From a virus (lineage: Duplodnaviria; Caudoviricetes), in IMG/VR virus record IMGVR_UViG_3300037790_000023, positions 1 to 46,195 of that record: a DNA stretch of 46,195 bases; one strand, given 5' to 3'. Both the position numbers and the translations under genes were made by a program. The notes below the pieces were generated by a model. That model made no database searches. It was not told the origin of the DNA and was given only the letters and a program-made list of their open reading frames with translations. This document shows positions 1,475 to 37,276 of this stretch, piece by piece (the stretch's first letter is position 1; every line of letters begins with the position of its first letter).

Positions 1475-1526
1475 GTCGGGGCGGCAGGATTCGAACCTGC
1501 GACCTCCTGCTCCCAAAGCAGGCGCG
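1475..1526 (-). other. 3' fragment of tRNA-Pro(TGG); prophage att site
   Basis: Minus strand CGCGCCTGCTTTGGGAGCAGGAGGTCGCAGGTTCGAATCCTGCCGCCCCGAC has anticodon arm (TGG), T arm and 3' acceptor strand; the 5' acceptor and D arm are replaced by AT-rich DNA. Confidence 0.9.
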
Positions 1527-1615
1527 AATTAAATATATTCGTTTGATTTTCAGCACGCATCGAAAATATTTTCAAAGTTTTAAAAGTTTTTTAAAAGTGG
1601 TATTACTTTGTTTTG

Positions 1616-2600: not shown

Positions 2601-2726
2601 CAACGGTAAAGTATATGCGTTCGGTTGCGATTAAAAGCACGGACGTATCAATTTAAAACAAAACTTAATAGAATGGAAGAAACAACGAATAAGCACGAAG
2701 CCGCAACTGACGTATATACAGTGTTA
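2601..2726. repeat. attC-like site S1
   Basis: CAACggtaaaGTATATGCGTTCGGTTGCG ... CGCAACTGACGTATATACagtGTTA. Confidence 0.85.
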
Positions 2727-3365
2727 CCCACTGGCACGGGTAATTTACTGGAACTTTTCGCAGGATCTAGAAGCGTTGGAAAGGTTGGTGAAAGGCTTGG
2801 CTACAATGTATTTTCGATTGATTGGAAAGAATACGATGGAATAAACCTTGCTATTGATATTGGCAATTTAGTTAAAGAAGATGTGCCTTTTGTTCCTGAT
2901 GTAGTTTGGGCTTCTCCTGATTGCACTACATACAGCATTGCAGCTTGTAGTACACACCGAACTAACAGTATTGAACCAAAAACAGACTATGCTAAAAAGT
3001 GCGATCAGGTAAACGAGCATTTTATAGGACTGATTAAAGAATGGCTAAATATTAACCCTAATATGGTATTCTTTATTGAAAATCCAAGAGGTATGCTCCG
3101 TAAAATGCCGTTTATGCAAGAGTTCAAAAGGCACACAATATGGTATTGCCAATATGGTGACGATAGAGCCAAGCCGACTGATATTTGGACGAACAGCAAA
3201 GACTGGATACCAAGACCACAATGTAAGAACGGAAACCCTAATTGCCACCACCAACCTGCACCGAGAGGAAGTAAGACAGGAACGCAAGGGCGAAAAGGAA
3301 GCTACCAACGATCTATAATACCCGTAGAACTTTGTTTGGAAGTACTAAGTAGTGCTTGTGGGTAA
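2673..3365 (+). CDS. Compact C5-cytosine DNA methyltransferase (cassette gene)
   Basis: Motif I LLELFAG, motif IV SPDC, motif VI IENP; starts inside S1 and stops at the TAA of S2. Confidence 0.8.
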   Translation: MEETTNKHEAATDVYTVLPTGTGNLLELFAGSRSVGKVGERLGYNVFSIDWKEYDGINLAIDIGNLVKEDVPFVPDVVWASPDCTTYSIAACSTHRTNSIEPKTDYAKKCDQVNEHFIGLIKEWLNINPNMVFFIENPRGMLRKMPFMQEFKRHTIWYCQYGDDRAKPTDIWTNSKDWIPRPQCKNGNPNCHHQPAPRGSKTGTQGRKGSYQRSIIPVELCLEVLSSACG

Positions 3366-3420
3366 CGGTTTGGCTATGAAATAGCGTAGCGACCCGAAGG
3401 GTATTTTATAGCCTGTGTTA
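3363..3420. repeat. attC-like site S2
   Basis: TAACggtttGGCTATGAAATA ... TATTTTATAGCCtgtGTTA. Confidence 0.9.
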
Positions 3421-3464
3421 TATACTGGCACGGGCAAATAGTAGAAACTTAATTTAAAAACGAT

Positions 3465-3704
3465 ATGAGAACCAAAAGGCATTTAAGTACAAACATTGAA
3501 GGAGTTTTACGAAACTTTAAAGGAAGGAAAATGACTGGATTATTCGATGATGAAAATGGAAATCCAATGAGCGACAAAGATATTAGGCAAACATTAGCTG
3601 AACTTCAAGCTAAAGGACATAAACTAATCGGTTCTGAGAACTGTGAAGGATTTGACCCTTTTGGTGGTGGTTGTCCTGGACATCCAATCGAAGACGATGA
3701 GTAG
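3465..3704 (+). CDS. Hypothetical cassette protein
   Basis: 79 aa ORF between S2 and S3, ends CEGFDPFGGGCPGH. Confidence 0.8.
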   Translation: MRTKRHLSTNIEGVLRNFKGRKMTGLFDDENGNPMSDKDIRQTLAELQAKGHKLIGSENCEGFDPFGGGCPGHPIEDDE

Positions 3705-3714
3705 TGCTTGTATA

Positions 3715-3835
3715 TAACGCTAAGTATAAAAACAGTGATAATTAACAGATAAAATTTAAAAAATGGCAGAACTTATTGAATTTCCGATGAACCAAGATAG
3801 ACGCAAAGAACTATCATTGTTTTTATACAATGTTA
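3715..3835. repeat. attC-like site S3
   Basis: TAACgctaaGTATAAAAACAGTGATA ... TATCATTGTTTTTATACaatGTTA. Confidence 0.9.
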
Positions 3836-3999
3836 GGCGTAGTGGTTTATATCCTGATATGGTAATAGACCGACTTGAAGCACATATAATTGAAGGAAAG
3901 CCTGAAAATGTTGTAGATAGCATATTTCACGAAGAACCAATTTGGATTGCAAAAAAGATGATGCAAATAATGATAGAGTTTGGCTACCATTACGCCTAA
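3763..3999 (+). CDS. Hypothetical cassette protein
   Basis: Starts in the S3 loop, stops at the TAA of S4. Confidence 0.75.
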   Translation: MAELIEFPMNQDRRKELSLFLYNVRRSGLYPDMVIDRLEAHIIEGKPENVVDSIFHEEPIWIAKKMMQIMIEFGYHYA

Positions 4000-4092
4000 C
4001 GGTGTAGCTATGCACAGGGCGATGAATCCAACACCAGTCTAAGATTGCACACAATTACCCCTGCTCTTTTTTTGCCCCAAACGAAAATAAAT

Positions 4093-4152
4093 TTAAGTAT
4101 TTACTTAAAAAAGGTTGTAAAATATTTGGTTTGTATTTAAGTATATGCTTAT
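4093..4152 (+). promoter_or_regulatory. Two near-palindromic operator-like boxes in the promoter region of the loop operon
   Basis: TTAAGTATTTACTTAA (4093-4108) and TTAAGTATATGCTTAT (4137-4152). Confidence 0.5.
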
Positions 4153-4177
4153 ATTACACCATCAAAACAAATAAGCT

Positions 4178-4360
4178 ATGACACTTACGCAAGAACTTAA
4201 AAGCAATCCTTACTTCAAGCCGTCAAACTGTACTGATCTATCAGACCTTGACCACGCTATTGGTGAAGTGTTAAAGCTGGAAGATAAGTACGGCCAACAT
4301 AAGAGCATTGATAATGTGTTTGAAAAACTATATAACAAACGTAAAAAGCTACAGGAATGA
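4178..4360 (+). CDS. Hypothetical protein (loop operon gene 1)
   Basis: 60 aa ORF, ATGA overlap with the next gene. Confidence 0.75.
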   Translation: MTLTQELKSNPYFKPSNCTDLSDLDHAIGEVLKLEDKYGQHKSIDNVFEKLYNKRKKLQE

Positions 4361-4611
4361 TTTACGATAATAATGATAACCACATTACAGTAAAACTTCT
4401 AAAAAAGAAAGGATGGATTCTTTTTGAAGTTTATTCAAGTAGATGCTCCGAAGCTAATGGTGAATCCGGTGGGTGGTGGATAGAAACATCTGTTGCTCAC
4501 GATACCGAACACGCTGAAAGTCATAGAAAAATTCAAAGCCTATTCTTAGGTTGCACTCTAAAGGGTGCAATATCGACACTAAAATCTGATAAAGTACCTT
4601 ATAATGACTAA
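4357..4611 (+). CDS. Hypothetical protein (loop operon gene 2)
   Basis: 84 aa ORF, translationally coupled. Confidence 0.7.
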   Translation: MIYDNNDNHITVKLLKKKGWILFEVYSSRCSEANGESGGWWIETSVAHDTEHAESHRKIQSLFLGCTLKGAISTLKSDKVPYND

Positions 4612-4780
4612 GCTAAAAGAAACAAGAAACCCAAGACCCTGTGCATTTTTGTATAAATGGATTGAAACCCAATTAGGAAATAAAAGGCAGTGTAGAAGGT
4701 GCGGTAAATTACAACATTTAGAGTTAGGCCATCCTGATAGATCAAATTCAACATGTAAAACAATAGGGTATTTTAAATGA
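4604..4780 (+). CDS. Small Cys-containing protein (loop operon gene 3; not in the ORF track)
   Basis: Manual translation MTKLKETRNPRPCAF...QCRRCGK...GYFK, 58 aa; overlaps both neighbours. Confidence 0.65.
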   Translation: MTKLKETRNPRPCAFLYKWIETQLGNKRQCRRCGKLQHLELGHPDRSNSTCKTIGYFK

Positions 4781-4956
4781 CCATCAAGGAAGTAAAAAAA
4801 GAACTCGGCATAACGGATAACGACCTGGCCGAGTTCTTCCAATACAAAACAGACATGGCCTACAGAAATTCATCTGCAAGGTCACGTATCGAAAATGGTA
4901 TTGTGAAACTGTATGCCCTTATGAAAACGCGAGCAGGGCAAAAAAAACCAGCCTGA
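4777..4956 (+). CDS. Small HTH-like protein (loop operon gene 4; not in the ORF track)
   Basis: Manual translation MTIKEVKKELGITDNDLAEFFQYK...GQKKPA, 59 aa; ATGA overlap. Confidence 0.7.
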   Translation: MTIKEVKKELGITDNDLAEFFQYKTDMAYRNSSARSRIENGIVKLYALMKTRAGQKKPA

Positions 4957-5022
4957 TGTATCAGAAAAGGACGAATAAGCCTTGGGTATAGCTGGTGTTG
5001 GTGTGTCGTTTTAATGCATCAC

Positions 5023-5145
5023 CAACGGTTTGTATATGAAACGTGGCGTTTGTAAAGCACAAACCTTCGGGCTTAGGAGTAGCGATATGGAGCAACTTGA
5101 ATCTTCAAGAGGACAGAAACTAGCCATGTTTTATATACTTTGTTA
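5023..5145. repeat. attC-like site S5
   Basis: CAACggtttGTATATGAAACGTGGC ... GCCATGTTTTATATACtttGTTA. Confidence 0.9.
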
Positions 5146-5197
5146 GCGCACGTTATTGTTAATCATGCGGACATTAATGTCCTTAACATCTAATATT

Positions 5198-5374
5198 ATG
5201 ACGAGATTTATTTTAAAAACAGACAATAGACAAGGTGAATATCTTAAAGCTGAGTACAATGGTAAAGATGCGCCTAACGGATGGAATCACTACACGCACA
5301 GCAAAAGAAAAAAGGTTGAAGAGTATGCACAAAAGCATAATATAATTGGGCGCATTGAAAAGGTTGTTCTTTAA
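5198..5374 (+). CDS. Hypothetical cassette protein
   Basis: MTRFILKTDNRQ... ORF between S5 and S6; start uncertain. Confidence 0.65.
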   Translation: MTRFILKTDNRQGEYLKAEYNGKDAPNGWNHYTHSKRKKVEEYAQKHNIIGRIEKVVL

Positions 5375-5381
5375 TGTGCGC

Positions 5382-5578
5382 TAACGCCTACGGCTATGCA
5401 CAGTAATTTTAAATAAACGATATTATGATTAGAATAGAACAAACAACTAAAGCTCGCAGAAAGCTATTTCCCTCAGATGAATACTGCATTAATAAAAATG
5501 GCGAATACATTTATTTGACTAAAGTTGAATTAATGAAAATAGTTTGTGATTTAAAATTATTGGGTATAGCCGATGTTG
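5382..5578. repeat. attC-like site S6
   Basis: TAACgcctacGGCTATGCACAGTAATTTTAAAT ... ATTTAAAATTATTGGGTATAGCCgatGTTG. Confidence 0.9.
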
Positions 5579-5676
5579 TATGCCCGAAGGGTAAGTGCAA
5601 TCGATACAAAGAACTACATGATGGTGAAGTAGCAATTAGCAGCAAAGCAATAACCAACCCTAATTGGGAAGAGTAG
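5425..5676 (+). CDS. Hypothetical cassette protein
   Basis: First ~50 codons lie within S6; right arm encodes LLGIADV. Confidence 0.7.
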   Translation: MIRIEQTTKARRKLFPSDEYCINKNGEYIYLTKVELMKIVCDLKLLGIADVVCPKGKCNRYKELHDGEVAISSKAITNPNWEE

Positions 5677-5689
5677 GTTGCATTGCATA

Positions 5690-5801
5690 CAACGGTTTGG
5701 CTATGTGGTGTGCCAACCGAACCCAAGCAAACACCACTAACGATTGAATTAAAAACAAACATTAATTAATAACTAAGATGCATACCATATAGCCTTTGTT
5801 A
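5690..5801. repeat. attC-like site S7
   Basis: CAACggtttGGCTATGTGGTGTGC ... GCATACCATATAGCCtttGTTA. Confidence 0.9.
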
Positions 5802-5824
5802 TGCATCTGTAAATTTTACAGATT

Positions 5825-6025
5825 ATGGAACGAATAAAATATTTAGAAAGCAAACTACCGAAAGGTTTTGACCCAAACGAAAAGTACGGTAAAAATTTTG
5901 ATAAATACGCAAGGTATATGGGTAATGGTGTTTATTCCTGGAAAGGTTTAATGGCTACCGACACACGAGAATTGTTTTTACTTGGTGTTCTTAGAAGTGA
6001 GGGTATTGAATTTAAGGAAGAGTAA
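5825..6025 (+). CDS. Hypothetical cassette protein
   Basis: 66 aa ORF between S7 and S8. Confidence 0.7.
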   Translation: MERIKYLESKLPKGFDPNEKYGKNFDKYARYMGNGVYSWKGLMATDTRELFLLGVLRSEGIEFKEE

Positions 6026-6043
6026 AGTAAAATTTATTGTGCA

Positions 6044-6171
6044 TAACGTTATACGGCTATGAAGCGTTGCCGATTAAAACGCTATAACTTTTCAAATTAG
6101 AAACAAAATGAGTAAAGAGAACAAGACTTTGGATAAGCAACAAAACGGCAATGATTTTATAGCCGATGTTA
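6044..6171. repeat. attC-like site S8
   Basis: TAACgttatacGGCTATGAAGCGTTGCCG ... CGGCAATGATTTTATAGCCgatGTTA. Confidence 0.9.
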
Positions 6172-6380
6172 GCAACCGTTTATTATTGCACGTACATAAT
6201 GATATTGAAGATGGTGCGAAGTGGTATAATATACCGTTAGCTTTTTGGAACAAAGATTCAGTTTATGTAATGCAAGAAGATAGATGTGTATTTGTTGGTA
6301 ACGCAGCAGCAGCTTTGCAATTCATAACTTATAACGAGGGTAAATATTGTCAATCGAAGTTTCCTTTAAATGGTTGCTAA
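6108..6380 (+). CDS. Hypothetical cassette protein
   Basis: Starts in the S8 loop (NGNDFIADV), stops at the TAA of S9. Confidence 0.75.
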   Translation: MSKENKTLDKQQNGNDFIADVSNRLLLHVHNDIEDGAKWYNIPLAFWNKDSVYVMQEDRCVFVGNAAAALQFITYNEGKYCQSKFPLNGC

Positions 6381-6462
6381 CGATCAAGGCATAAGGCGAG
6401 TGGATGCGAAGCATACACATAGAGCCTTTGAGCTTCGCATCATTAGCCTTATGCGCCTGTTA
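6378..6462. repeat. attC-like site S9 (alternative right arm at 6532-6544)
   Basis: TAACgatcaaGGCATAAGGC..GATGCGAAGC ... GCTTCGCATC..GCCTTATGCgcctGTTA. Confidence 0.85.
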
Positions 6463-6581
6463 GGGAGCGTGGCCCAAGGGGCAAGCCTACATAAATTAAA
6501 TAATTATTAACCTCTCCTGATGCGTTGCTCAGCCTTGATCGTTAGGGCTCAGAGAGCTGCAAAGGAGCTTATTATTTTTCA

Positions 6582-6794
6582 ATGTTAACAGAAATTCAAA
6601 AAGCGAAAGCGGAGCAAATACATTCTCTTATAAGGGGAATAATAGCTATAGAAATGGGTTATGCTAATCAAACAAAAGTTTGCAAATCCGCTGAAGCGGT
6701 TTTTAATAAAATTGGTCAGTTAACATACCAAGAGTTTCGGCTTGTAAAAAAATATCTAAGCGGTTGCAGCGTACCGAAGGGCGATGAGCCCTAA
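6582..6794 (+). CDS. Hypothetical cassette protein
   Basis: 70 aa ORF ending at the TAA of the terminal TAAC. Confidence 0.65.
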   Translation: MLTEIQKAKAEQIHSLIRGIIAIEMGYANQTKVCKSAEAVFNKIGQLTYQEFRLVKKYLSGCSVPKGDEP

Positions 6795-6810
6795 CTAGCA
6801 TATAGAAAAC
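6785..6810 (-). other. Putative attI-like primary recombination site
   Basis: Last core TAAC (6792-6795; minus strand ctatatgctaGTTAGGGC) has no partner arm and lies 37 bp from the recombinase ATG. Confidence 0.6.
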
Positions 6811-6831
6811 CAACAACCTAAACCATTGATT

Positions 6832-7638
6832 ATGAAAACCAAACACGATGAAGTTTTAAGAATTACATTTCAAAAGCTTAAATATTTAAACTACTCTGAC
6901 AGAACGATTGAAACCTATATTCATTACTGTAAGAAGTTTTTAGAATCGGTGGATAAATATCATCAGCACTTGGTGGCAAGTGATTTTCAAAGCTACTTGA
7001 ATGGATATAATTTTACATCAATAAGCCAGCAAAATCAGATTATAAACGCTATAAAGTTCCTGTATAAAAAAGTACTTGGGCGGTCTTATGGCAAGGTGAA
7101 TTTTCAACGACCTCGCAAAGAAAAGAAACTCCCTCGCCCAATTGATAAAGACTTCCTTGTTTCGTGTATAAATCAGATTGAGAATTTGAAGCACAAGGCA
7201 ATTTTATCGCTTGCTTTTAGTGTAGGGTTAAGAGTTTCTGAGGTGATTAATCTAACAATCTCCGATATTGACAGCAAGCGTATGATGATATTTATAAGAG
7301 AATCGAAAGGTAGGAAAGATAGATACGTTCCTTTAAGTGAAGGTTTGTTGAATCTATTAAGACTTTACTTCAAGGAATTTAAGCCGAAAGTTTACCTGTT
7401 TAATGGTCAAAATAAAAATCAATACACTTCTTCAAGTTGCAATAAATTAGTAAAAAGGTATGTTGGTAGGAAATATCATTTTCATCAACTTAGGCATAGT
7501 TCCTTTACTGCGATGATGGAAAATGGAACCGACACAAGGATAATTCAAAAGTTAGCGGGTCATTCAAGCATTAAAACCACTCAGGTTTATACTCATGTTT
7601 CAAATTTTTCACTTCAAAATATTGCTCTTCCAATATAA
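6832..7638 (+). CDS. Tyrosine recombinase with N-terminal SAM-like domain, integron-integrase-related
   Basis: YSDRTIETY N-domain; catalytic R (GLRVSE), K (KGRKDR), HQLR, H (LAGH), Y (QVYTHV). Confidence 0.92.
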   Translation: MKTKHDEVLRITFQKLKYLNYSDRTIETYIHYCKKFLESVDKYHQHLVASDFQSYLNGYNFTSISQQNQIINAIKFLYKKVLGRSYGKVNFQRPRKEKKLPRPIDKDFLVSCINQIENLKHKAILSLAFSVGLRVSEVINLTISDIDSKRMMIFIRESKGRKDRYVPLSEGLLNLLRLYFKEFKPKVYLFNGQNKNQYTSSSCNKLVKRYVGRKYHFHQLRHSSFTAMMENGTDTRIIQKLAGHSSIKTTQVYTHVSNFSLQNIALPI

Positions 7639-7642
7639 AACG

Positions 7643-7864
7643 CTAAACATTCCTTGTGAGGTGTTCTAGGTTTATTCCCCACTCTTCTAAGCTGTTGTTA
7701 AATTCGTGTCTTGCTGGATTGTTAGGGTTCTTTACAAAGTACTCATTAAGGTCGTGAAGGACGAAAGACATTCTTTGAGCTGCTATCATTTGTTCTAATT
7801 TCAATAAGTGTTCAGGGTTTAAAAGATTCCCTTCTATTTTCATGTTAATTCTATCTTCGCTCAT
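7643..7864 (-). CDS. Hypothetical protein
   Basis: 73 aa ORF with ATGA overlap to the upstream gene. Confidence 0.65.
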   Translation of the reverse strand: MSEDRINMKIEGNLLNPEHLLKLEQMIAAQRMSFVLHDLNEYFVKNPNNPARHEFNNSLEEWGINLEHLTRNV

Positions 7865-9132
7865 ATCACAATTTCCATTACTGTTTTGCCGACATGAAGT
7901 TTACTCACACTTTTAGCATTATACGCTTCTAACTCCCTTATCACATTGTAGCCTTCGCAATTCGCGAATTGCAAATCTATGTATTGGTAATACCTTTCTT
8001 TGCCTATAGCTACATAACATACGCCTGATGCCCTGCCTTGTAATCCTAATGCGTTTTCGTTAAAAGAGTTGGAGCCACTCATTGAGCCACTTCTACAACT
8101 TATATCCGTTGCTCTATGCGCGTGTATGTGACCACCTATAACAAAGTCTATCAATATTCCTTTAAGAGCCTGAACGCCTATTGATGATTGCGTGTTTTTT
8201 TGTTGATCTAAAGTCTTATCGAGATTGTGTTTTATAAGCCAGTTCTGCTCACCTACTTTTACTACTATCTCTAAATCATCGTGGGAGTGGAATCTTATCC
8301 CTTCAATTCCTGAAAATTCAAATATCTGTTTAAGTTGGGCAATAATGGTAAAGTCGTAGTTGTCCGAAAAAGCCTCTTTGCTAAATGTCATTTCCTTACC
8401 TACCCTGCTTTCATTACCCAGCACCGAAACTATATCCACCTCAAAACCTTCATTCCTTACCTCTAATATCATTTGCTTTAAGAGGTGTATCATTAAGATA
8501 CTTGCCTTGCTTCTGTTTGTAGATGCGTTCAGTAATTCATCTAATCGCCTATCAGAGTTTAATAAATCGCCTGTAAAAGCGATTAAGACTTTAGATACCT
8601 TACGATGCTTAAAATACTCTAAACTCTCCCTCGTGTACTTTTTGAGCCTTTTGGATAGTATATTGAAATCGTATTTATTATGAGGTAGGTCTATCAATTC
8701 ATTGCCGTGAACATCTGTGATTTGCATCACACCAATCCCACCTGTATTTAATTTGATGGGATTGATGTTTATTGAGTTAGACAAAATTTGTCCAAATTGT
8801 TTATTCTGCTCAACAAGTGCCGCCCCAAATTCGGATACAGCATTTTCAACACGATAGAACTCGCGCCTTGTTTTTCGTTCAATCCTTAGTTTGTCTGCTG
8901 ATTTTTGATACTTCTTTTCAAGGATTACATTCTCGGCTATTATTTCATTGTCGGCCAACCATCTTTTTAGTGCATCACCAATGGTTCGCCTTAACCCATC
9001 TTCGCTGCATCGGTCTGAAATTTCAGGATGTTTGTGATAAAGTAGTTTGGCAACATGGGTAATATTGCCGTCCAACTCTTCATAAGATTCTAATATCTCA
9101 TCCTTGTAATCGTGAATGTATGGTTTTGCCAT
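7861..9132 (-). CDS. Calcineurin-like metallophosphoesterase with N-terminal HTH/coiled coil
   Basis: TDVHG, TGDLLN, LGNE, KH and GHIH motifs. Confidence 0.8.
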   Translation of the reverse strand: MAKPYIHDYKDEILESYEELDGNITHVAKLLYHKHPEISDRCSEDGLRRTIGDALKRWLADNEIIAENVILEKKYQKSADKLRIERKTRREFYRVENAVSEFGAALVEQNKQFGQILSNSININPIKLNTGGIGVMQITDVHGNELIDLPHNKYDFNILSKRLKKYTRESLEYFKHRKVSKVLIAFTGDLLNSDRRLDELLNASTNRSKASILMIHLLKQMILEVRNEGFEVDIVSVLGNESRVGKEMTFSKEAFSDNYDFTIIAQLKQIFEFSGIEGIRFHSHDDLEIVVKVGEQNWLIKHNLDKTLDQQKNTQSSIGVQALKGILIDFVIGGHIHAHRATDISCRSGSMSGSNSFNENALGLQGRASGVCYVAIGKERYYQYIDLQFANCEGYNVIRELEAYNAKSVSKLHVGKTVMEIVI

Positions 9133-10371: not shown

Positions 10372-10780
10372 ATTCCTCACCATCTAAAAACTGAATTGCT
10401 ATAACCGAATCACTTATACCGTGGGTATTCATAAACTCCCCCGCTGGTACTTCTAAGGGTATAGTATTTTCATCTGCAAATTGATTTCTTAAAGGGTCAT
10501 ACACTTTGCCTTTTATAACGTGAATTTTACGGTCTACATCTAAGGAATAAGGCTTACCCATGTAACCCTCTTTGATTACGGCAATCACAATTTTATCCTT
10601 CACCCCAAATTCATCGGGAATGTTCAATGCAAAATGCGCCCCCATGCCGTCCGGGTCTTTCACCCATTTTTCAACTAAGGGAATCTCCTTTTCCGTGCCG
10701 TCCTGAAATCGCGACATTATAGAATCGTGCTTTAATTCTATTTCAGCACACAACGCTTTTAACCTCTCCTTATCTCCCAT
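10370..10780 (-). CDS. Hypothetical protein in the lysis module
   Basis: 136 aa ORF overlapping the upstream gene. Confidence 0.7.
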   Translation of the reverse strand: MGDKERLKALCAEIELKHDSIMSRFQDGTEKEIPLVEKWVKDPDGMGAHFALNIPDEFGVKDKIVIAVIKEGYMGKPYSLDVDRKIHVIKGKVYDPLRNQFADENTIPLEVPAGEFMNTHGISDSVIAIQFLDGEE

Positions 10781-11069
10781 TTTTACAACCTGATTCTTTG
10801 ACTTGTCCGCGTAATTCCCGCATTTCGTCCTTTACGCTGTCAAATTGATTAATTACTTTATCTATCGCGTTGTTTGAAGTTGTTACAGCTTTTAAAGCAT
10901 CTTTCGTCAGTTCCTTTAGCTCCTCGTTGCGCTTGTCCTCCCTTTTTTCTAATTTTTTGATGTGGTAAATCAAACCAGCAATGATTGCAACCAGTATTAA
11001 AAATACTATCCCTAATCTCGCTATTTGATAAAACACATCTATAAAATCTACCACCTGTAAAACCCCCAC
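10770..11069 (-). CDS. Membrane protein, holin/antiholin-like
   Basis: One TM helix followed by a coiled coil, next to the endolysin. Confidence 0.6.
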   Translation of the reverse strand: MGVLQVVDFIDVFYQIARLGIVFLILVAIIAGLIYHIKKLEKREDKRNEELKELTKDALKAVTTSNNAIDKVINQFDSVKDEMRELRGQVKESGCKNGR

Positions 11070-11082
11070 TTTTATTGAGTTT

Positions 11083-11616
11083 TTATTTTATTCCTAGAGC
11101 CTTCCTACACTCCCCTAATCGTTTTAATCTATCAGCATAACCATTTAAACCCCCGTTTATACGCTTGGTAACCGTTTCAAACTTCCCCTCATCAGCCAGC
11201 TTGTTTAGCTTTTTATGAACCGTCCAAAACCAACCAGCGGACGCGCAAGCATTAGCGGGTTCTTCTACCTTTTCAGGATTCTTTACAAAGTCCTCATTCA
11301 TAAAGTCTGAAAAGGATTTGTAGTTCGCCCTTCCAGTAAGCTGAATAAACCCTCTACCCTTGTATCTAATCCCATCACCCGTCTCGGTATTACCTAAGTC
11401 CTTACGGCCTTCATACGCGCTCCCTGACGCTATTTCACGGACATATAAAAGGTCTAGGCTCTCATGTCCTATTTGAGCAAAGAAGAAACTTACACGCTGC
11501 GGTGTGTCTATGTCAAAAACCTGTAGCGTTTTCATCATTGGCTCGTAATATTTATTTATTCGAGCGTTTGATGTGCGCGGGAAACAGGCTTTGAATTGCT
11601 CTTTAGTCAGATTCAT
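11083..11616 (-). CDS. GH19-family endolysin
   Basis: FFAQIGHES, YKGRGFIQLTGRANY, TKRINGGLNG; likely start MNLTKEQF. Confidence 0.9.
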   Translation of the reverse strand: MNLTKEQFKACFPRTSNARINKYYEPMMKTLQVFDIDTPQRVSFFFAQIGHESLDLLYVREIASGSAYEGRKDLGNTETGDGIRYKGRGFIQLTGRANYKSFSDFMNEDFVKNPEKVEEPANACASAGWFWTVHKKLNKLADEGKFETVTKRINGGLNGYADRLKRLGECRKALGIK

Positions 11617-11836
11617 TTTTCTGTTTTGCTTTTGTTTCTTGCGCTTTACTACCCATTTTCCAGCCAGCGGCCAAGCCAACTATTCCTGATACGTAGGCTA
11701 ATGCAGGAACGCTACCCTCCATACGCACTACGTAAACACCTATTATCATTGCATAGGTTACCAATCCAAGAACTATCAATCGAGTGATTGAAAAGTTGCC
11801 TGAATCATCCTGAAAAAAACCTGACTTCTTTTCCAT
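11603..11836 (-). CDS. Putative holin
   Basis: 77 aa, two TM segments, charged C-terminus, directly upstream of the endolysin. Confidence 0.7.
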   Translation of the reverse strand: MEKKSGFFQDDSGNFSITRLIVLGLVTYAMIIGVYVVRMEGSVPALAYVSGIVGLAAGWKMGSKAQETKAKQKNESD

Positions 11837-11846
11837 ATCTATTTAT

Positions 11847-12002
11847 TTAACCATTAATCTCGTTTAGGTCGGACAAAAGGCGCAATGTTTCATCTATGAG
11901 CTTATCTACATAAGGCACATCGCTTGTTTCTCCGCTGTTTGCCAATTCCTTTTTACGTTCCTGCAACCACTCGTGGCGGTCTATTAATACTGATTCTGTC
12001 AT
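11847..12002 (-). CDS. Small hypothetical protein (not in the ORF track)
   Basis: Manual translation MTESVLIDRHEW...NEING, 51 aa, fills the operon gap. Confidence 0.55.
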   Translation of the reverse strand: MTESVLIDRHEWLQERKKELANSGETSDVPYVDKLIDETLRLLSDLNEING

Positions 12003-12275: not shown

Positions 12276-14273
12276 TTATTCTAAAATTTGTGGTTGACTA
12301 TTTACATCTGTTGTCCATTGCACTTGTTTTTCTTGGCCTAAATCATTCCTATACGTTTGTGTCCACGTGCTGCCGTTTACATCCGTGCTTATCAAACTAT
12401 ACTCCCCTAAGCTCTCAAAAAGACTTTTAAGTAACTCCCCTGATGGTTTTAGTTGGATATTACCTCTTGCTATCCTATCTACCCTAAAAGCTATACCTGT
12501 GCTGCTATAAGTGCTTTGGTTGTCCCACGGTGGCTCGAAATTATCCCTCATATGGTATATCATAAGGTAGTCTGCATACTCTGAAGCTGTGAGCATATAC
12601 CGCGCGTTGTAATTCGCCTGTCGGTATAGAATGATAGAATCCCACTCTGGCCAAAAAACGTTATCGTACAACCACCCAGCTAATGAATCACCCTGATTGT
12701 CTATAAGCTCATGTAATGCTACATCTACTGAATCATCAATAAATACTCTGTTTAGGTTCCAATCTATAGCGGTGGCATCTGCTCCAAATTCCGATAAAAT
12801 ACAGGGTAGCCCCATACTATGTGAAAACTCACACGTCCGCTCTATTTCGTGCAACCATTCCGTATTTTCGGGTGGTATAGCGTGGGCATTGGCCGACCAT
12901 TGAAAGCCTAATTTATTGGTGCAATAGCTATTTACCGAAATCATATCAGCACAAAAAACGCTATCCGATCTAAACGTTTCAAACCATTGCTTCGCCATTT
13001 TCATGTACCCGACATTGTTGTAGGCTTGTGCCATCCATGCTACTCTAATTTCAGGAAATGAATCTTTTATACCGTACCCGAATTGCCCCTCGTGGCCATC
13101 CCAAAACACACTATAAGCAGCGGCTACCATAAAAGGGTTTAAGCGGTGATAGCCTGTTTGCCACGTTTTATCCAGTTCGTTAAAAAGCTGAATAATAGCC
13201 ACGGTGTCCAAATTATTCTCATGGATATAAGAGGCAACTTGCATCATCATATCCCGTAAGGGCTGCCAGTTTTCGGGGTCAAACTGCCTTGCCCTGTTTT
13301 CATTTCCCGTTAAATTCTCATCCCAATAAAACATTGGTACACCGTCATAAGCTGCCGCTGGAAATGAGTTTGTAAAGGTGTCTGGTGTTCCTACAAAAGA
13401 AAGCAACAACTCCCCGCCTTTGTCCGCGAACTTTTCTAATTGGTTAATGTCAAAAGCTCCTGCTGCCGCCCCTGATTTGATTAGGTTCAAGGTCTTTTGA
13501 TTCCACGTCTTTACAGATTCAACATAAGTCCGTGATATGTTAAAGAAGTTCGCATCGTAGATGTTTTGAATACCCGCTGAATCCAAAGATTCTACATGGT
13601 CATAGTCGTGTGTGGTTACGCCCCATTGGTCTTTTACTTTCTTGTTAACCACATAGCCTGATGGTTCAGGAATAGCATCTATTCTACTACCATATACCGC
13701 TACCTCACCTATGCCATTAACCGAGCCTAAAGGGTGCCTAAGCATTACATATCTTAAAGTGTCCCCTATCGGTACTTTTCGCCAAGCTAAGTACAAGCTT
13801 AGATTTATTTGAGTGACTGAATCTACATCGAAGATATTTTCTTTAGCCGTCCAAATTTGAATAGGCGTAACCCCTGCTACATCTCTTATCCAAATGCTAT
13901 CTATCTTACACCTCCCTTGCAGGTCAATAATTATTATCTGTTCATTTAAACCTGTGTTAGGTATCACTTCATAAGGTGGGCTGGCCCAAATGTTTGACGT
14001 AAATGTTGCGGTGGTGTTTAGTACCGAATCAAATAATGCCGCTGCTTCATATTGTACGGTGTGATAGTCCGCTAATATCCACTCATGGGTAACGGGTAAA
14101 AGCTCATTTGTCAACCATGTCCCTGTAGGATTTCCACCCCCGCCCTGACTGGGTGGTGTGATAAGAGTATCTAACCTCCTTATGCGTGTGGTTTTTTCGG
14201 CTTGCTGCATTACCGCTGGTAATTGTGCCTCAACCGTAAAAGAAAAGAGTAGTATGTAAATGATGTACCTCAT
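12276..14273 (-). CDS. Secreted clan GH-A-like glycoside hydrolase with discoidin-like N-terminal domain
   Basis: Signal peptide ending VEA|Q; acid/base motif QLFNELD, nucleophile motif ILSEFG. Confidence 0.7.
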   Translation of the reverse strand: MRYIIYILLFSFTVEAQLPAVMQQAEKTTRIRRLDTLITPPSQGGGGNPTGTWLTNELLPVTHEWILADYHTVQYEAAALFDSVLNTTATFTSNIWASPPYEVIPNTGLNEQIIIIDLQGRCKIDSIWIRDVAGVTPIQIWTAKENIFDVDSVTQINLSLYLAWRKVPIGDTLRYVMLRHPLGSVNGIGEVAVYGSRIDAIPEPSGYVVNKKVKDQWGVTTHDYDHVESLDSAGIQNIYDANFFNISRTYVESVKTWNQKTLNLIKSGAAAGAFDINQLEKFADKGGELLLSFVGTPDTFTNSFPAAAYDGVPMFYWDENLTGNENRARQFDPENWQPLRDMMMQVASYIHENNLDTVAIIQLFNELDKTWQTGYHRLNPFMVAAAYSVFWDGHEGQFGYGIKDSFPEIRVAWMAQAYNNVGYMKMAKQWFETFRSDSVFCADMISVNSYCTNKLGFQWSANAHAIPPENTEWLHEIERTCEFSHSMGLPCILSEFGADATAIDWNLNRVFIDDSVDVALHELIDNQGDSLAGWLYDNVFWPEWDSIILYRQANYNARYMLTASEYADYLMIYHMRDNFEPPWDNQSTYSSTGIAFRVDRIARGNIQLKPSGELLKSLFESLGEYSLISTDVNGSTWTQTYRNDLGQEKQVQWTTDVNSQPQILE

Positions 14274-15142
14274 GGAAGCATGGCCTCTATGCCTGTTCTA
14301 TTTGTTGTTTGATTGGAAGGATAGACTACTAAAAGTTTGATAGTACCAAACCAAAAAGAAGTGCCTGAATGTCCGCTCCCCATTGTAACCCTACCCAATT
14401 GGCCTGAGCCTACATTCTTTGAGCCTAAGTCTGTACCGTTTATCCAAAGTTTACTTGCTGTGGTGTTGAAAAGACCGAACCATGTAGTTTGCGCTTGGAA
14501 AGGGCTAAGGGTAGTATAGTCATTTACCGAACCTGCAAACAACCTGCAATTAGCGTCACCATTGATACCTATTACCTGCCTGTGTGTTGGGCTACCGTCT
14601 GTAATGTAGTGCGCCCCTCCGTCCGCTGCGGCATCTCTTGTAGCAATAGCTATCCTTGTGGTAGGTTGTGCGGTTGGCCCAAAGTCTACCGTTTGCAGAT
14701 AGTCTCCGTCAAACTCCATCGTGGGGTTTCCGTCATCACCTCTTATTATGGTGCCACTACTCACTATTTTAGGTTGATTACCCGCTGTAAGTTGCCTAAG
14801 ATTTCTACCGTTCCCGCTTTGGTCAAAACCTCTTCTTACAAAGCAATCCGTACCCGCGCAAAAGGTCTTTAGGGTGGCGCTATCTAAATCAGTATTTACA
14901 AACCCGATATAGGCCGTGTCATTATCGCTTGATCTTCTTACCTGTATGCAATTACCTGCATAGTCTTTATCTAGTTTGTTTAAGGCAAAAGCAAAGGCCG
15001 CGTTTGGAAAGCTATCCAATAAAAGCCATGAAGCAGGGGCGGGTGGTGTACTCCCTGCCGTGTCATGTATAGCATAGTAGTAGTTCTGCCCCGAAAGGCT
15101 TAACCCTATACTGATAAATAAGAGTAGAATCAGTTTTTTCAT
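14270..15142 (-). CDS. LamG/concanavalin-like domain protein with signal peptide
   Basis: MKKLILLLFISIGLSLSG|Q; AFALNKL..YAGNCIQVRRSSDN motif typical of phage fibre domains. Confidence 0.65.
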   Translation of the reverse strand: MKKLILLLFISIGLSLSGQNYYYAIHDTAGSTPPAPASWLLLDSFPNAAFAFALNKLDKDYAGNCIQVRRSSDNDTAYIGFVNTDLDSATLKTFCAGTDCFVRRGFDQSGNGRNLRQLTAGNQPKIVSSGTIIRGDDGNPTMEFDGDYLQTVDFGPTAQPTTRIAIATRDAAADGGAHYITDGSPTHRQVIGINGDANCRLFAGSVNDYTTLSPFQAQTTWFGLFNTTASKLWINGTDLGSKNVGSGQLGRVTMGSGHSGTSFWFGTIKLLVVYPSNQTTNRTGIEAMLP

Positions 15143-18100
15143 TACAGTACGACATAACTATTGGTTCCTGTTTTACGCAATATCCCGCCTGTGTAAACCG
15201 AGCTATTGCCTACATCTTTATCACCTGCACTCACTCCGTTTATTGAAACTCCTGTAGCCCCTTCAATGGTGAATGTTGTGCCGAGTGCCTCTAAGTTTAT
15301 TACGTCCCCCACGGCCATTGCAGAGAAGTTTAATGTGATGGTTAGCGTGGCTGTAGAGGTACAACTAAGGGTATTGCCCACGTCAGAGGCCGCAATATTT
15401 CTGTTAGATGAAACGGCTATTACAGTAGGTTTGAGCTGGTAATATTGCAGGGTGTCCGATACCAAACTATCTACTTCGGATTTAGTATAATATCCTGATA
15501 AGTCAGTTGAACCCCCTCCGCTAACCGTTGCACCATTCGCGACATAAAAAGTATCATTAGCATACATTACAGAAGCCGTAGCTAACACGGTATCGCTTGT
15601 AACATTCTGCCCCCCTATCTTTAGGTTTGATGTCCCTTTTAGTAATCTAAATGAGCCTTCATCGCCATTATTCCAAAAGTTAATAACACTACCATTTGGA
15701 GCAGAAATAGTGTTGAATGTTACGGCTATTTCGCTGTTTGAAACATTCTGAATATTACACGAGGTATCGGTTGCGCTAACTGTGAAATTTGAGGTTACTT
15801 TCTTATAGCAGGATTTGAAGCCTGAACCGCTATTTGATGTTGTGTTATTCCTTACCCAATCTCTCGTTGCAACGGTATCTGTACCCCAAAGAACCATTTT
15901 GCCTGTTTTAGGAGACAGGTAAATATCTCCTATGTAATTGACAAGACTTAAAGACCTGTTGGCTTCCGTGTGAAATCCTGAACGGCCTAAAACTGCACCT
16001 GATGAATTTCTATGTTCAATAAACGATGTTGTGGTGGTAGAGTCACCATTAGCATCTGCTAAAACAATTAAACCTCCGTTATGCCTTACACGCATATTAG
16101 AACCTACATCTAAAGCGAATGAAGGGTTTAAATTGGCTATACCAAAACCGCCACTTTTTAAAGTTGCGTACTCAGTGTTGGATATTCTAAAAGCAACCCT
16201 CTCACCTGATTTAGCATTAATGGAAGTCGTCCCCGCGCTTGTTTGCCCAACGGCATAATCTGTAGATGTAGAAAGTCCTCTATACCCTAATGAAAAAACA
16301 TTGGGTGTAGCCGATGGCCTTCCTAAAAAATAGTTTTCACCTAATAGCTCCCGTGGTGTGTAAAGTTGACTGTTAGTTGAAACAATAGTATCTGCATAGG
16401 TGGTTTTACCTGTGGCCTCCCCACTTGTATCATCTGCGCTTGGCACCCATGCTGTACCACTCCATTTTAATATTTGACCTACAGAAGCCCCACCTTGCCC
16501 AATATCGCTTGGGGATATATCTAAATTAGCTTTTAACCCATTTAAAATTGTGTTGAATCCCTCACCTCTCGATACTGTAGAAGATGTGGTTTTAATGTAA
16601 CTACTATATCTATTTTGGACTTCCATTTGTCCTCCCCAAACATAAAATCCATTCACCCCATCACCCGCGTAACTTGGGCGGTTTGTGGCTGTAGGAGAGT
16701 TAATAGTAGCTAAACCTATTACACCCGTTCCGTTAGCTGCGGCTGTTTGTGTTACTGATATTCTGTACCAATCGTTAGGTAGAGATGCTATTTCGGCAGA
16801 ACTGAAAATATTAGCGGTAATAGCACCCGTCTGTAAGTCAAAATTGGCATACCTACTTGAAGGAAATCCAGCACCAGCACCATAAATCTGAATATACCTT
16901 AACCCTGCTTGCTTTACAAAAAAGCTAACTGAATAAGTAGTACCTGATGTAACTGTTTTTGTTTGGGCGATAACGTGTGTGCCGTTGGTAACTGTAGGTG
17001 TTATTTTTTCAGCTGATGTAGTTCCATCAGGCGCAATAGCTGAATCTACACCTACTGTCATATTCACCGTACCCCAAACAACATTATTTAGCTGTTCGCT
17101 ATATGTATATAAGTTGGTAGAGTTCGGTTCGTAAGTGAAATAATCAGATGCATCACCCGTGAGCGTGTCACCAACAGAACCCCCACCACCGCCTGAGCTT
17201 GGTGGTATGTCGGGGCCTACGGTGTTGTTTCCAGTCATATCACCCGCTGTATTGTATGCTCTTTTAAATACATTTAGAATCGACCAACCGACTTTTACAC
17301 TATAAGCATTGGGGTTAATAACCATTATTTTAATGGATTCATCATACTTTATAGGCGGCACGGTGAAGGATTGAAAACCTGCCCCATCGCCAGACTGAGC
17401 GTAAATATTAGTATTGAAATACAACACCCTTTCACCGTCAATAATGATTTTTACATAACCTTTAAAAGCATTGATTGTACCCGAAATTACATTCCCTGAA
17501 AGGCTGTTAAATTCTAAAACGGCTAGACTATCACCCGCTGATACAGTAGTGTTGCTACCTCTTTCCCATCTCAAATCTCCTGTTTTAGCACCAATACCCC
17601 ACGCATTTTCTAAACCTGTGGGACTTGTGATATACTCCGTTTGCAGATTTTGAGCGTTAATATCGCGGGCTGTAACACTTGGCGCGACTACGCTTTTGGT
17701 TGTAACTAATTTATTCTCGTTATCATTCGCAACCTTAACATTATCGCCCTCCCTTACGGCTATAGCGTAAGATGTCCACCACGTATTATTTATCCCTTTA
17801 GAGGAATACCAAACCTCATATTTCGTTTCATCTAACCTCCTGAAACTACTTTTATAAAGTATCTGATTTTCATTCTCAAAGAATGGGTTTAACAAGGTGT
17901 TTCGGTAAGCAAAAGATGTTCCGTTGCTGCTTTCTAATATCCATAATCTCCCATTTGCACCACCTTTACCAGAAGCAGCATTAAGTAGCATTTGCCAACC
18001 GTATTTTTCATCCCATTGAACCTCTACGTGCCAAGGTATTCTACTATCAGGTTTACCTGTAATTGATACCGCTTGCTCAACTCCATAATTAGCCGCAACC

Positions 18101-19134
18101 ATTGGGCTGCCTGTTATTTGCTTTCGGGCAAGTGTTAAGGTGTTCAGTCCAAAATCGTAATTGCAGTAATACATATACACGTTACCGCTTCCATCTTTTA
18201 CAATAGATGGTGATAGAAAAGGAATGTCAGGGTCAGCGTCCATAATTTCGTAATACAGCACTTGCTTTTTCGCGCTCCAATTCACACCATCTACGCTCTT
18301 TACCATATATACATATAGTCGCGTAAATCCTGACTGTGTGATACTTTGGCGAAACGCCATGTATAGGGTGTCATTGTTGTAAAACAAGTTGGGGTCTGCG
18401 TTATAATCCGCGTTTAAATCTGCACCACTTGTAGGTGTTGGCTCAATTGGATTAGTTAAACCCGTTGGAACTACCCAATTAACTCCGTTGTGACTCGCAA
18501 ATACACAAGGATTCTCAAACCTGTTTTGACTATCTGCATAAGGTGTTATTGCCATCCAATACCTATACCCATTGAAAGGTGTATCAAAATATAACACCGA
18601 AGGGTGGACGGTCTGACCTATGTTGTATGGTTCTGGTATGCGAACGGTTACAGGTCTATGGCTATACTCATTCGCGCTTTTAACCGATACCGCTGCATCA
18701 TTGCTGAATTTCAACTCTAAATTAGCCTCTAAAGTATCCGCTGTGGTGGTTAACTCGGCTTGTGTAACATCACCCCCCGCTGGTATCTCCACACTATTAC
18801 CCCCACTAATGGTAAGGGTTGAGCCGTCAATTGATAATGTTTGATTCAATGTATCAGCGGCCGCTTGTAATTGGGCTTGCGTAACATCACCCTCACCGCC
18901 TCCACCTGAGAATTTAGATAATTTCCTATAGCTAACTTTACCAGAAGGTAACACTATAGCTACTACAGTATCTGATTCATCAGCTAAATCAGGAAGATAA
19001 ACAGGACTTCTAAATAAAGCACCACCCAACCATTTATATTTAATGGGGTTCTTTTGGTACTTTAAAGTGTCGCTTTCCTGTGCAAATGAGCAAAGGGAAA
19101 GACTTAAAAAAAGGAGTGTTACTATCCGTTTCAT
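15142..19134 (-). CDS. Large mosaic fibre/adhesin-like protein with beta-propeller glycosidase-like domain and signal peptide
   Basis: Signal peptide ending SFA|Q; VHPSVLYF..YWMAITPY..ENP propeller; TNLYTYSEQ..WYRIS..VWGGQME fibre domain; GQILKWSGTAWVP repeat. Confidence 0.7.
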   Translation of the reverse strand: MKRIVTLLFLSLSLCSFAQESDTLKYQKNPIKYKWLGGALFRSPVYLPDLADESDTVVAIVLPSGKVSYRKLSKFSGGGGEGDVTQAQLQAAADTLNQTLSIDGSTLTISGGNSVEIPAGGDVTQAELTTTADTLEANLELKFSNDAAVSVKSANEYSHRPVTVRIPEPYNIGQTVHPSVLYFDTPFNGYRYWMAITPYADSQNRFENPCVFASHNGVNWVVPTGLTNPIEPTPTSGADLNADYNADPNLFYNNDTLYMAFRQSITQSGFTRLYVYMVKSVDGVNWSAKKQVLYYEIMDADPDIPFLSPSIVKDGSGNVYMYYCNYDFGLNTLTLARKQITGSPMVAANYGVEQAVSITGKPDSRIPWHVEVQWDEKYGWQMLLNAASGKGGANGRLWILESSNGTSFAYRNTLLNPFFENENQILYKSSFRRLDETKYEVWYSSKGINNTWWTSYAIAVREGDNVKVANDNENKLVTTKSVVAPSVTARDINAQNLQTEYITSPTGLENAWGIGAKTGDLRWERGSNTTVSAGDSLAVLEFNSLSGNVISGTINAFKGYVKIIIDGERVLYFNTNIYAQSGDGAGFQSFTVPPIKYDESIKIMVINPNAYSVKVGWSILNVFKRAYNTAGDMTGNNTVGPDIPPSSGGGGGSVGDTLTGDASDYFTYEPNSTNLYTYSEQLNNVVWGTVNMTVGVDSAIAPDGTTSAEKITPTVTNGTHVIAQTKTVTSGTTYSVSFFVKQAGLRYIQIYGAGAGFPSSRYANFDLQTGAITANIFSSAEIASLPNDWYRISVTQTAAANGTGVIGLATINSPTATNRPSYAGDGVNGFYVWGGQMEVQNRYSSYIKTTSSTVSRGEGFNTILNGLKANLDISPSDIGQGGASVGQILKWSGTAWVPSADDTSGEATGKTTYADTIVSTNSQLYTPRELLGENYFLGRPSATPNVFSLGYRGLSTSTDYAVGQTSAGTTSINAKSGERVAFRISNTEYATLKSGGFGIANLNPSFALDVGSNMRVRHNGGLIVLADANGDSTTTTSFIEHRNSSGAVLGRSGFHTEANRSLSLVNYIGDIYLSPKTGKMVLWGTDTVATRDWVRNNTTSNSGSGFKSCYKKVTSNFTVSATDTSCNIQNVSNSEIAVTFNTISAPNGSVINFWNNGDEGSFRLLKGTSNLKIGGQNVTSDTVLATASVMYANDTFYVANGATVSGGGSTDLSGYYTKSEVDSLVSDTLQYYQLKPTVIAVSSNRNIAASDVGNTLSCTSTATLTITLNFSAMAVGDVINLEALGTTFTIEGATGVSINGVSAGDKDVGNSSVYTGGILRKTGTNSYVVL

Positions 19135-36758: not shown

Positions 36759-37276
36759 GCCGTTTGCTTAATAGTAAAGTTTTTTCGCCTCCCTAATGGT
36801 AGATACCCTTTCGCTTCTTTCAGGCTGTTAAAATCCAATACAAATAAATTTTCTAAGTATCTCATTTTTGATAAGTAGTGGCTTTCTTTGAGTTCATGTA
36901 TCGATTGCGGTGTTTGTTCTGTATAGTGTTTTTTATAAATACTATACTCTTTTTTGCCGTGTTCTTTATACCATCCAGACCTAACCATGCTTTTAGATAC
37001 TTGGTTGGTACTTCTGTCAATATAAACGATTAACTCACCTTCTGCGAGGTTTGGGAATAAATGAAATAACGCAGGGCATTGAATAACAGATTTATTTTTA
37101 TCTATTGATAGAAATTTATCTAAATCACTTGCGTTAAACTCTGCTTCGTCAATATGTCTGTAACCTATTTCTTCTGCCAATGCTTTAGCGCAAAAGGTAG
37201 TTCCCGTCCTTTGACATCCCGTTACATAAATAGTTTTGTATTTACTTGCTTTATCCTTTAGTTTGCTCCATGTCAT
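36755..37276 (-). CDS. Sulfotransferase-like P-loop protein
   Basis: IYVTGCQRTGTT resembles the PAPS 5'-PSB loop; VYIDR..KS resembles the 3'-PB motif. Confidence 0.6.
   Translation of the reverse strand: MTWSKLKDKASKYKTIYVTGCQRTGTTFCAKALAEEIGYRHIDEAEFNASDLDKFLSIDKNKSVIQCPALFHLFPNLAEGELIVYIDRSTNQVSKSMVRSGWYKEHGKKEYSIYKKHYTEQTPQSIHELKESHYLSKMRYLENLFVLDFNSLKEAKGYLPLGRRKNFTIKQTA

Follow-up and report, generated by a model that had tools for sequence, protein, structure and literature searches.

Integrons are known for storing resistance and anti-phage genes in bacteria, and the locus described here would place the same principle on the phage side. In classical integrons, the attC site is cut between C and A of its bottom strand (PMC2727003), and an insertion in the integrase IntI is described as essential for integron function, although not fully conserved in an integron-like subgroup (PMC8138268). 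One complete integron is recorded for the Bacteroidetes proper (PMC9024848). Chromosomal rAID-1 arrays are defined by a 5' XerD-like recombinase that shares more than 44% identity with BF9343_RS08045 and at least two co-oriented, low-GC downstream genes (10.1101/471110). Clusters of attC-like sites have also been described in phages, and P12002L_attC1 from the Polaribacter phage P12002L was the only one of six sites that IntI1 failed to integrate (PMC9892861). We analyzed the virus record IMGVR_UViG_3300037790_000023 (Caudoviricetes) over its whole length of 46,195 nt, hereafter the window, which carries nine hairpin-bounded units, a docking site and a short tyrosine recombinase. We put the probability at roughly three in four that the enzyme swaps these units in the manner of an integron, via the folded gene strand at YAA|C.

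The nine YAAC…GTTR units extend across 2601-6795, with all cargo open reading frames (ORFs) and the recombinase on the plus strand. An earlier reading of the letters alone (the sequence-only reading) had proposed nine hairpins and nine pairs of complementary flanks, and every YAAC start and flank pair was recovered at its position. Eight of the hairpins are compact, measuring 58-197 nt, with spacers of 5-7 nt 3' of YAAC and 2-4 nt 5' of GTTR. Site 4 does not fit that description, as its arms lie 1,004 nt apart (3997/4997), with about 950 nt and four ORFs between them, and its flanks, separated by 26 nt, pair only weakly (7/12 matches). The proposal that the flank after each GTTR pairs with the next site and not with its own was borne out, since the 12-nt flank matches the next-site flank at 81 of 108 positions versus 30 of 108 for the own-site flank. 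Only 1 of the 362,880 permutations of flank pairs attains 81, and 2,461 GTTR/YAAC pairs elsewhere in the window gave a mean of 3.4/12 with only two reaching 9; the flank pairing is not chance. In every one of the nine units, the 7-nt R box pairs completely with the next site, compared to 3-5 of 7 positions with its own site. Folding of the predicted circle junctions, a check suggested by the same reading, gave a more stable structure for the gene strand in eight of nine cases. Four ORFs begin within a hairpin loop, in addition to the four of unit 4, and four end on the TAA of a core. Unit 9 holds two GTTA (6459 and 6541). No hairpin follows the last YAAC (6792), in agreement with units built as hairpin, gene and flank in that order. 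The segment 1530-2600 was not counted as a unit because the upstream flank of site 1 has no partner flank near the array. No Rfam family matched the hairpin sites.

A terminase search identified no close relative of the window phage (best 65%), and its own array is therefore not comparable between strains. Natural junctions were examined in cultured relatives carrying such arrays, the Polaribacter phages Freya and Danklef. Seven of the ten Freya isolates entered the comparison, with Freya_10 as reference and Freya_3, 4 and 7 left out. Between Freya_10 and the six other isolates, the differences are confined to units joined at YAAC, with junctions sharing 3-4 nt, and they add up to the whole length difference of each record. 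An upstream YAAC is joined to the core before the recombinase in Freya_1, 2, 5 and 9. In Freya_6, an additional 472-nt unit stands at this docking core, and Freya_6 and Freya_7 are its only matches among phage records. An internal unit of 902 nt is missing from Freya_8, giving five of six events at the docking site and one internal loss. Danklef_2, 3 and 4 are without a 781-nt methylase unit, with the boundary at TAAC, and two units stand in swapped order between Danklef_5 and Freya_10. Whole-unit differences at YAA|C, anticipated for related phages, were thus seen at internal positions in Freya_5, 6 and 9 and in Danklef.

Homologues of unit 1, which encodes a DNA methyltransferase, are alike within their YAAC borders and unlike beyond them, with values of 1.0 inside and 0.1/0.2 outside for one pair of viral loci (L228/L234) and 0.9-1.0 inside versus 0.3 outside for another (L248/L273). 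Six flank variants of the methylase unit were found, each matched at both ends. Among 49 blocks shared between viral loci, YAAC stands at 18 right and 7 left ends, compared to 1 and 0 for GTTR and a chance level of 8-9%. When hairpins in the relatives were picked on their inner arms only, 61 adjacent pairs gave a mean of 6.4/11 for the next site versus 3.8/11 for the own site, with at least eight matches in 28 versus 0 pairs. The integron-like cassette logic with boundaries at YAA|C therefore holds in Freya, Danklef, the unit 1 homologues and the shared blocks. The sequence-only reading had placed recombination at G|TT, which stands for the minus strand and not for the gene-strand GTTR, as the crossover lies in the upstream YAAC. 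A crossover at the gene-strand G|TT was rejected because the last unit would then have no hairpin and because the junctions sit at YAAC. Since these junctions lie at YAA|C and classical attC is cut on its bottom strand, the plus (gene) strand here corresponds to the integron bottom strand. With the gene-strand crossover located at the upstream YAAC, the genes are antisense to the usual cassette layout.

The attI-like site of the earlier proposal was supported by its fixed spacing, with a hairpin-less YAAC 37-38 nt before aligned residue 1 of the recombinase in 16 of the 25 viral loci long enough to test. Position and Freya junctions agree with a putative attI, a hairpin-less site beside the integrase at which cassettes would enter. 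The recombinase retains all catalytic residues (R135, K160, H219, R222, H245 and Y254, numbered from the codon at 6829). It appears to lack the IntI insertion of about 47 residues, as query residues 179-216 align to VchIntIA 179-264, and the distance from the catalytic lysine to the H-x-x-R motif is 60 versus 106-107 in IntI. Its TIGR02249 score of 147.7 bits lies below the integron-integrase cut-off of 265. In a 48-row tree, the recombinase falls in a phage-dominated clade with other viral copies, Freya and Ingeline (support 99/99), and Leef lies outside. Both IntI rows branch within the insertion-less enzymes and separately from the Xer rows; with only two rows of each, the tree cannot fix the order of origin. 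Ingeline carries a second, longer integrase for lysogeny. The enzyme had been called dedicated to the array; it is linked to the array, intact and part of its own clade, it is not an IntI, and its dedication is what we infer. By anatomy and natural junctions, and with catalysis presumed, the system is judged integron-like in its working while standing outside the IntI family.

Polarity and site chemistry were compared between phage and chromosomal loci with a unit detector that forces pairs 1-6 to match, so that only pairs 7-14 are informative; L022 and L023, which have the array of L021, and the truncated L028 do not enter the counts. Across 27 phage loci, 125 kb upstream of the recombinase hold 92 units, compared to 8 in 168 kb downstream, with genes on the recombinase strand in 84 of the 92 and G:T at outer stem pair 8 in 78. 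Conversely, in 79 chromosomal loci with 38-50% identical enzymes, downstream units (116) outnumber upstream ones (16), and 93 of the 116 have A:C at pair 8, which amounts to the phage-type site read from the other strand. Relative to the sites, phage genes face opposite to those of chromosomal Bacteroidota arrays, and the hairpin travels before its gene. Of the 42 phage units with an inner mismatch, the first such mismatch is G:T in 34 and lies at -10 in 31, and in the window the -10 pair is G:T at 7/9 sites and the +10 pair at 6/9. On the basis of the pair 8 and inner mismatch counts, the folded circle would contain a wobble on either side of the G of GTT, at -10 and +10, and the two likely set the strand that is used. 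Classical cassettes are likewise known to pair beyond the R box, and the passages cited from PMC2727003 make no mention of a fixed wobble. No extrahelical base equivalent to the bulged G of L'' was found near the core, the region scored, where the arms align without a bulge. Start codons lie within the hairpin in 23 of 57 phage units. In some viral loci (L001, about 10540-11900, and L012), a further array lies on the downstream side of the recombinase, and that of L012 has sites of the opposite polarity.

In the proposed mechanism, each unit would consist of hairpin, gene or genes, and flank-YAA, and the recombinase would act on the folded gene strand, which it would cut at YAA|C to excise and insert units. 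The two flanks of a unit would pair fully only in the excised circle, forming a stem with two symmetric G·T wobbles around the core, and the wobbles would choose the strand, substituting for the IntI insertion and the bulged bases known from classical integrons. Incoming units would enter at the double-stranded docking site directly ahead of the recombinase, where a gene run of one direction ends, and would carry their translation start within their own hairpin. A broader reading, to which we give a little less than even odds, is that Bacteroidota phages have their own form of single-strand gene capture, in which a clade of minimal recombinases reads a two-fold symmetric, two-wobble hairpin with cargo on either side of the core and anti-defence genes are shuffled within one phage population.

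Several observations weigh against unit exchange by the phage enzyme. In Freya_1, 2 and 8, the junction falls at the cut ends of a record deposited as circular and depends on that label, so that firm, internal junctions are those of Freya_5, 6 and 9 and Danklef, and gain is not distinguishable from loss in these isolate differences. The Freya enzyme is only 36% identical to that of the window. Of 80 methylase homologue loci, 18 were scored as cassette-bounded and 62 were not. Within the window, the outer stems of units 4, 6 and 7 are decayed and unit 3 folds slightly better on the opposite strand. Contigs (not reads) from four of seven runs contained no excision joint at any core, and their sole joint (1646 to 2059) lies outside the array. 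Finally, Danklef varies at TAAC although all five isolates carry a recombinase shortened by about 95 residues at the N-terminus, and sites of this kind occur in P12002L, which has no such recombinase. In Danklef_5 (L203, 11970-12480), a second copy of the beginning of a cassette hairpin stands in place of the N-terminal part of the recombinase, as would result from recombination of the array into the gene of its own enzyme.

Given the variation in Danklef with its truncated enzyme and the enzyme-less sites of P12002L, a host enzyme may act in trans. In its strong form, this explanation holds that the units are real and mobile but moved mainly by a host chromosomal rAID-type recombinase, the phage gene being redundant or having another job. 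A recombinase homologue was found in 75 of 201 genomes of the order searched, and these host homologues share the site chemistry on the other strand, as seen from the A:C at pair 8. We nevertheless regard it as unlikely, given that the docking core keeps its distance from an intact gene in most testable viral loci, that arrays lie almost only upstream of the phage recombinase genes, which form their own clade, and that most Freya events use the docking site. It is still less probable that the array is a frozen fragment of a host cassette array, captured once and no longer rearranged. The decayed stems, the missing joints in contigs of the window phage's own runs and published phages with captured chromosomal integron pieces (PMC9892861) speak for such a fragment, whereas its genes lie opposite to those of host arrays relative to the sites and its cargo is phage-type. 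In addition, a run X5 contig matches 6793-6869 exactly with another 27 nt that do not fit, as if a different unit were docked, although this is one low-depth contig. Equally improbable is a prophage integrase for tRNA-Pro, or a Xer-like resolvase, beside regulatory repeats reshuffled by short homology, because, although the recombinase is the sole PF00589 protein in the record and its best NCBIfam and PDB matches are XerA-like, it lies 5 kb from the tRNA core, the record ends within a gene on its far side, where a lysogeny integrase could be, the junctions share only 3-4 nt, and the unit-specific flank complementarity, up to 640 nt apart and co-varying among methylase homologues, would have no role in repeat-mediated exchange.

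The features of the array and its surroundings are listed in Table 1. The unit 1 methyltransferase matched phrog_757 (E 4e-26), and the variable Danklef unit likewise encodes a DNA methyltransferase. The benefit is likely protection against restriction, which is also argued for methylases in PMC9892861. The Atlas gave no usable match for the 79-aa ORF of unit 2, and profile searches gave no family match for the cargo ORFs other than this and the methylase and no immunity family among the window cargo. The last ORF of unit 4 shows 46% identity over 50 aa with the C-terminus of Freya10_9, which is also loop cargo. The inverted junction copy in unit 9 may have been left by insertion of the wrong strand or by template switching in a folded circle, and may record how the matching ends of cassettes are made; the detector flagged such a copy in none of the 57 phage units it parsed. 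Four of the five CCGAAGG/CCTTCGG mini-hairpin motifs of the window fall in the array (3394, 5064, 5584 and 6774), and a 5'-GAA triplet in the terminal loop of classical attC is mentioned for strand recognition (PMC2727003). A lone YAAC…GTTR hairpin occurs at 37067-37136, distant from the array.

Table 1. Features of the array, docking site and recombinase, with the tRNA-Pro fragment, in window coordinates.
Feature	Position	Strand	Description
tRNA-Pro gene, 3' 53 nt	1475..1527	-	sequence; partial Rfam tRNA match; other contigs match 1475-1527, then continue as tRNA-like sequence
Unit 1, 762 nt	2604..3365	+	hairpin 2601-2726; DNA methyltransferase 2673-3365, start in loop, stop on TAA of next core
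Unit 2, 352 nt	3366..3717	+	58-nt hairpin; 79-aa ORF 3465-3704, phrog_21034
Unit 3, 282 nt	3718..3999	+	78-aa ORF 3763-3999, start in loop, stop on core TAA
Unit 4, 1026 nt	4000..5025	+	loop cargo ORFs 4178-4360, 4357-4611, 4604-4780, 4777-4956; outer part 4997-5026 nearly empty
Unit 5, 359 nt	5026..5384	+	ORF end 5374 (72 aa from TTG 5156)
Unit 6, 308 nt	5385..5692	+	83-aa ORF 5425-5676, start in loop, through right arm
Unit 7, 354 nt	5693..6046	+	66-aa ORF 5825-6025
Unit 8, 334 nt	6047..6380	+	90-aa ORF 6108-6380, start in loop, stop on core TAA
Unit 9, 414 nt, adjoins docking site	6381..6794	+	hairpin 6378-6462; second GTTA 6541; 70-aa ORF 6582-6794
Inverted 20-nt copy of predicted unit 9 circle junction (6785-6795 then 6382-6390), exact	6532..6551	-	sequence
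Putative attI-like docking site	6792..6831	-	YAAC core without hairpin, then AT-rich box, 40 nt before recombinase ATG
Tyrosine recombinase, 268 aa from ATG	6832..7638	+	Phage_int_SAM_4 and Phage_integrase domains

The record carries terminase, portal and endolysin genes on the minus strand. Its left end is host-type, including a protein with a Por secretion tail, and the host-type DNA stops at the tRNA-Pro fragment, which is likely the prophage attachment core. An ARAGORN tRNA call ('Asn') spans phage DNA and was set aside as a likely miscall. The secretion-tail protein and the relatives of the recombinase point to a Bacteroidota host. Because the right end of the record falls within a gene, a lysogeny integrase may lie beyond it. 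A TAnnTTTG box at 1616, which we take to be the Bacteroidota promoter motif, precedes small ORFs ending in a helix-turn-helix gene just before site 1 (1616-2588) and may drive the array. Contigs from runs X4 and X5 cease matching at the ATG at 2316 and a run X4 contig skips 1647-2058, so this region appears to vary by a route other than cassette exchange. A 423-aa exonuclease-family gene (7861-9132, minus strand, phrog_284) is convergent with the recombinase, and large tail-region proteins of 665, 290 and 1330 aa at 12276-19134 (minus strand) are likely receptor-binding.

The phage platform likely supplies methylases and other small genes, and unit differences explain the 44.0-48.9 kb size range of the Freya isolates, in whose description the word 'integron' is absent from the main text (PMC8776804). 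Two questions become testable, namely how a folded strand is recognized without the IntI insertion and how the matching cassette ends originate, and cultured phages (Freya and Leef) and a 268-aa enzyme ease the assays.

With classical integrons, the window array shares YAAC/GTTR cores (R''/R'), paired arms, an unpaired central spacer, a variable terminal loop and R-box pairing completed only in the circle, together with crossover between A and C of the better-folding strand and a docking site at the 5' end of the divergently read recombinase (PMC2727003). Classical integrons differ in the IntI insertion, absent from the window enzyme, and in their conserved bulged G, in place of which the window has G·T wobbles at -10 and +10. 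Their cassette genes lie upstream of attC in top-strand sense, whereas here the genes are antisense to the site polarity and point toward the recombinase, start codons are often in the hairpin and cargo can sit in the loop.

The rAID-1 arrays of Bacteroidales share an XerD-like recombinase beside short co-oriented genes and integron-like intergenic motifs (10.1101/471110; PMC12247911), and the passages cited from both accounts give no crossover site or hairpin mechanism. They differ in being chromosomal, with the array behind the recombinase, normal gene polarity and immunity cargo; in the window, the array is upstream, the downstream genes are on the other strand and no immunity family was found among the cargo. 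The enzyme was compared to rAID-1 only through L334 (1200-4760), a locus of rAID-1 layout with a 42% identical enzyme and a Tdi1 immunity gene, which shows next-site flank pairing as in the window with the core ATTR instead of GTTR.

Phage attC clusters share attC-like sites around methylase genes in P12002L (PMC9892861), whose attC1 has the form of the window sites (core, 6-nt spacer, GGCTA…TAGCC arms and 3-nt spacer). They differ in being presented as integrase-less clusters or captured IntI integrons, and the cited passages describe no phage-own recombinase, docking site or reversed polarity. Set beside integrase-less attC clusters (CALIN), which by definition have no associated cassette recombinase, the window shows no IntI but a linked, intact recombinase and a docking site. 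The sequence-only reading knew of no description of this arrangement; our literature search, with most subscription journals outside its scope, found no phage-encoded insertion-less platform with reversed cassettes. Parts of the system are already in print, as chromosomal rAID-1 arrays (10.1101/471110) and phage attC clusters (PMC9892861), whereas the complete phage platform is new as far as searched and may show a simpler state from which IntI integrons arose.

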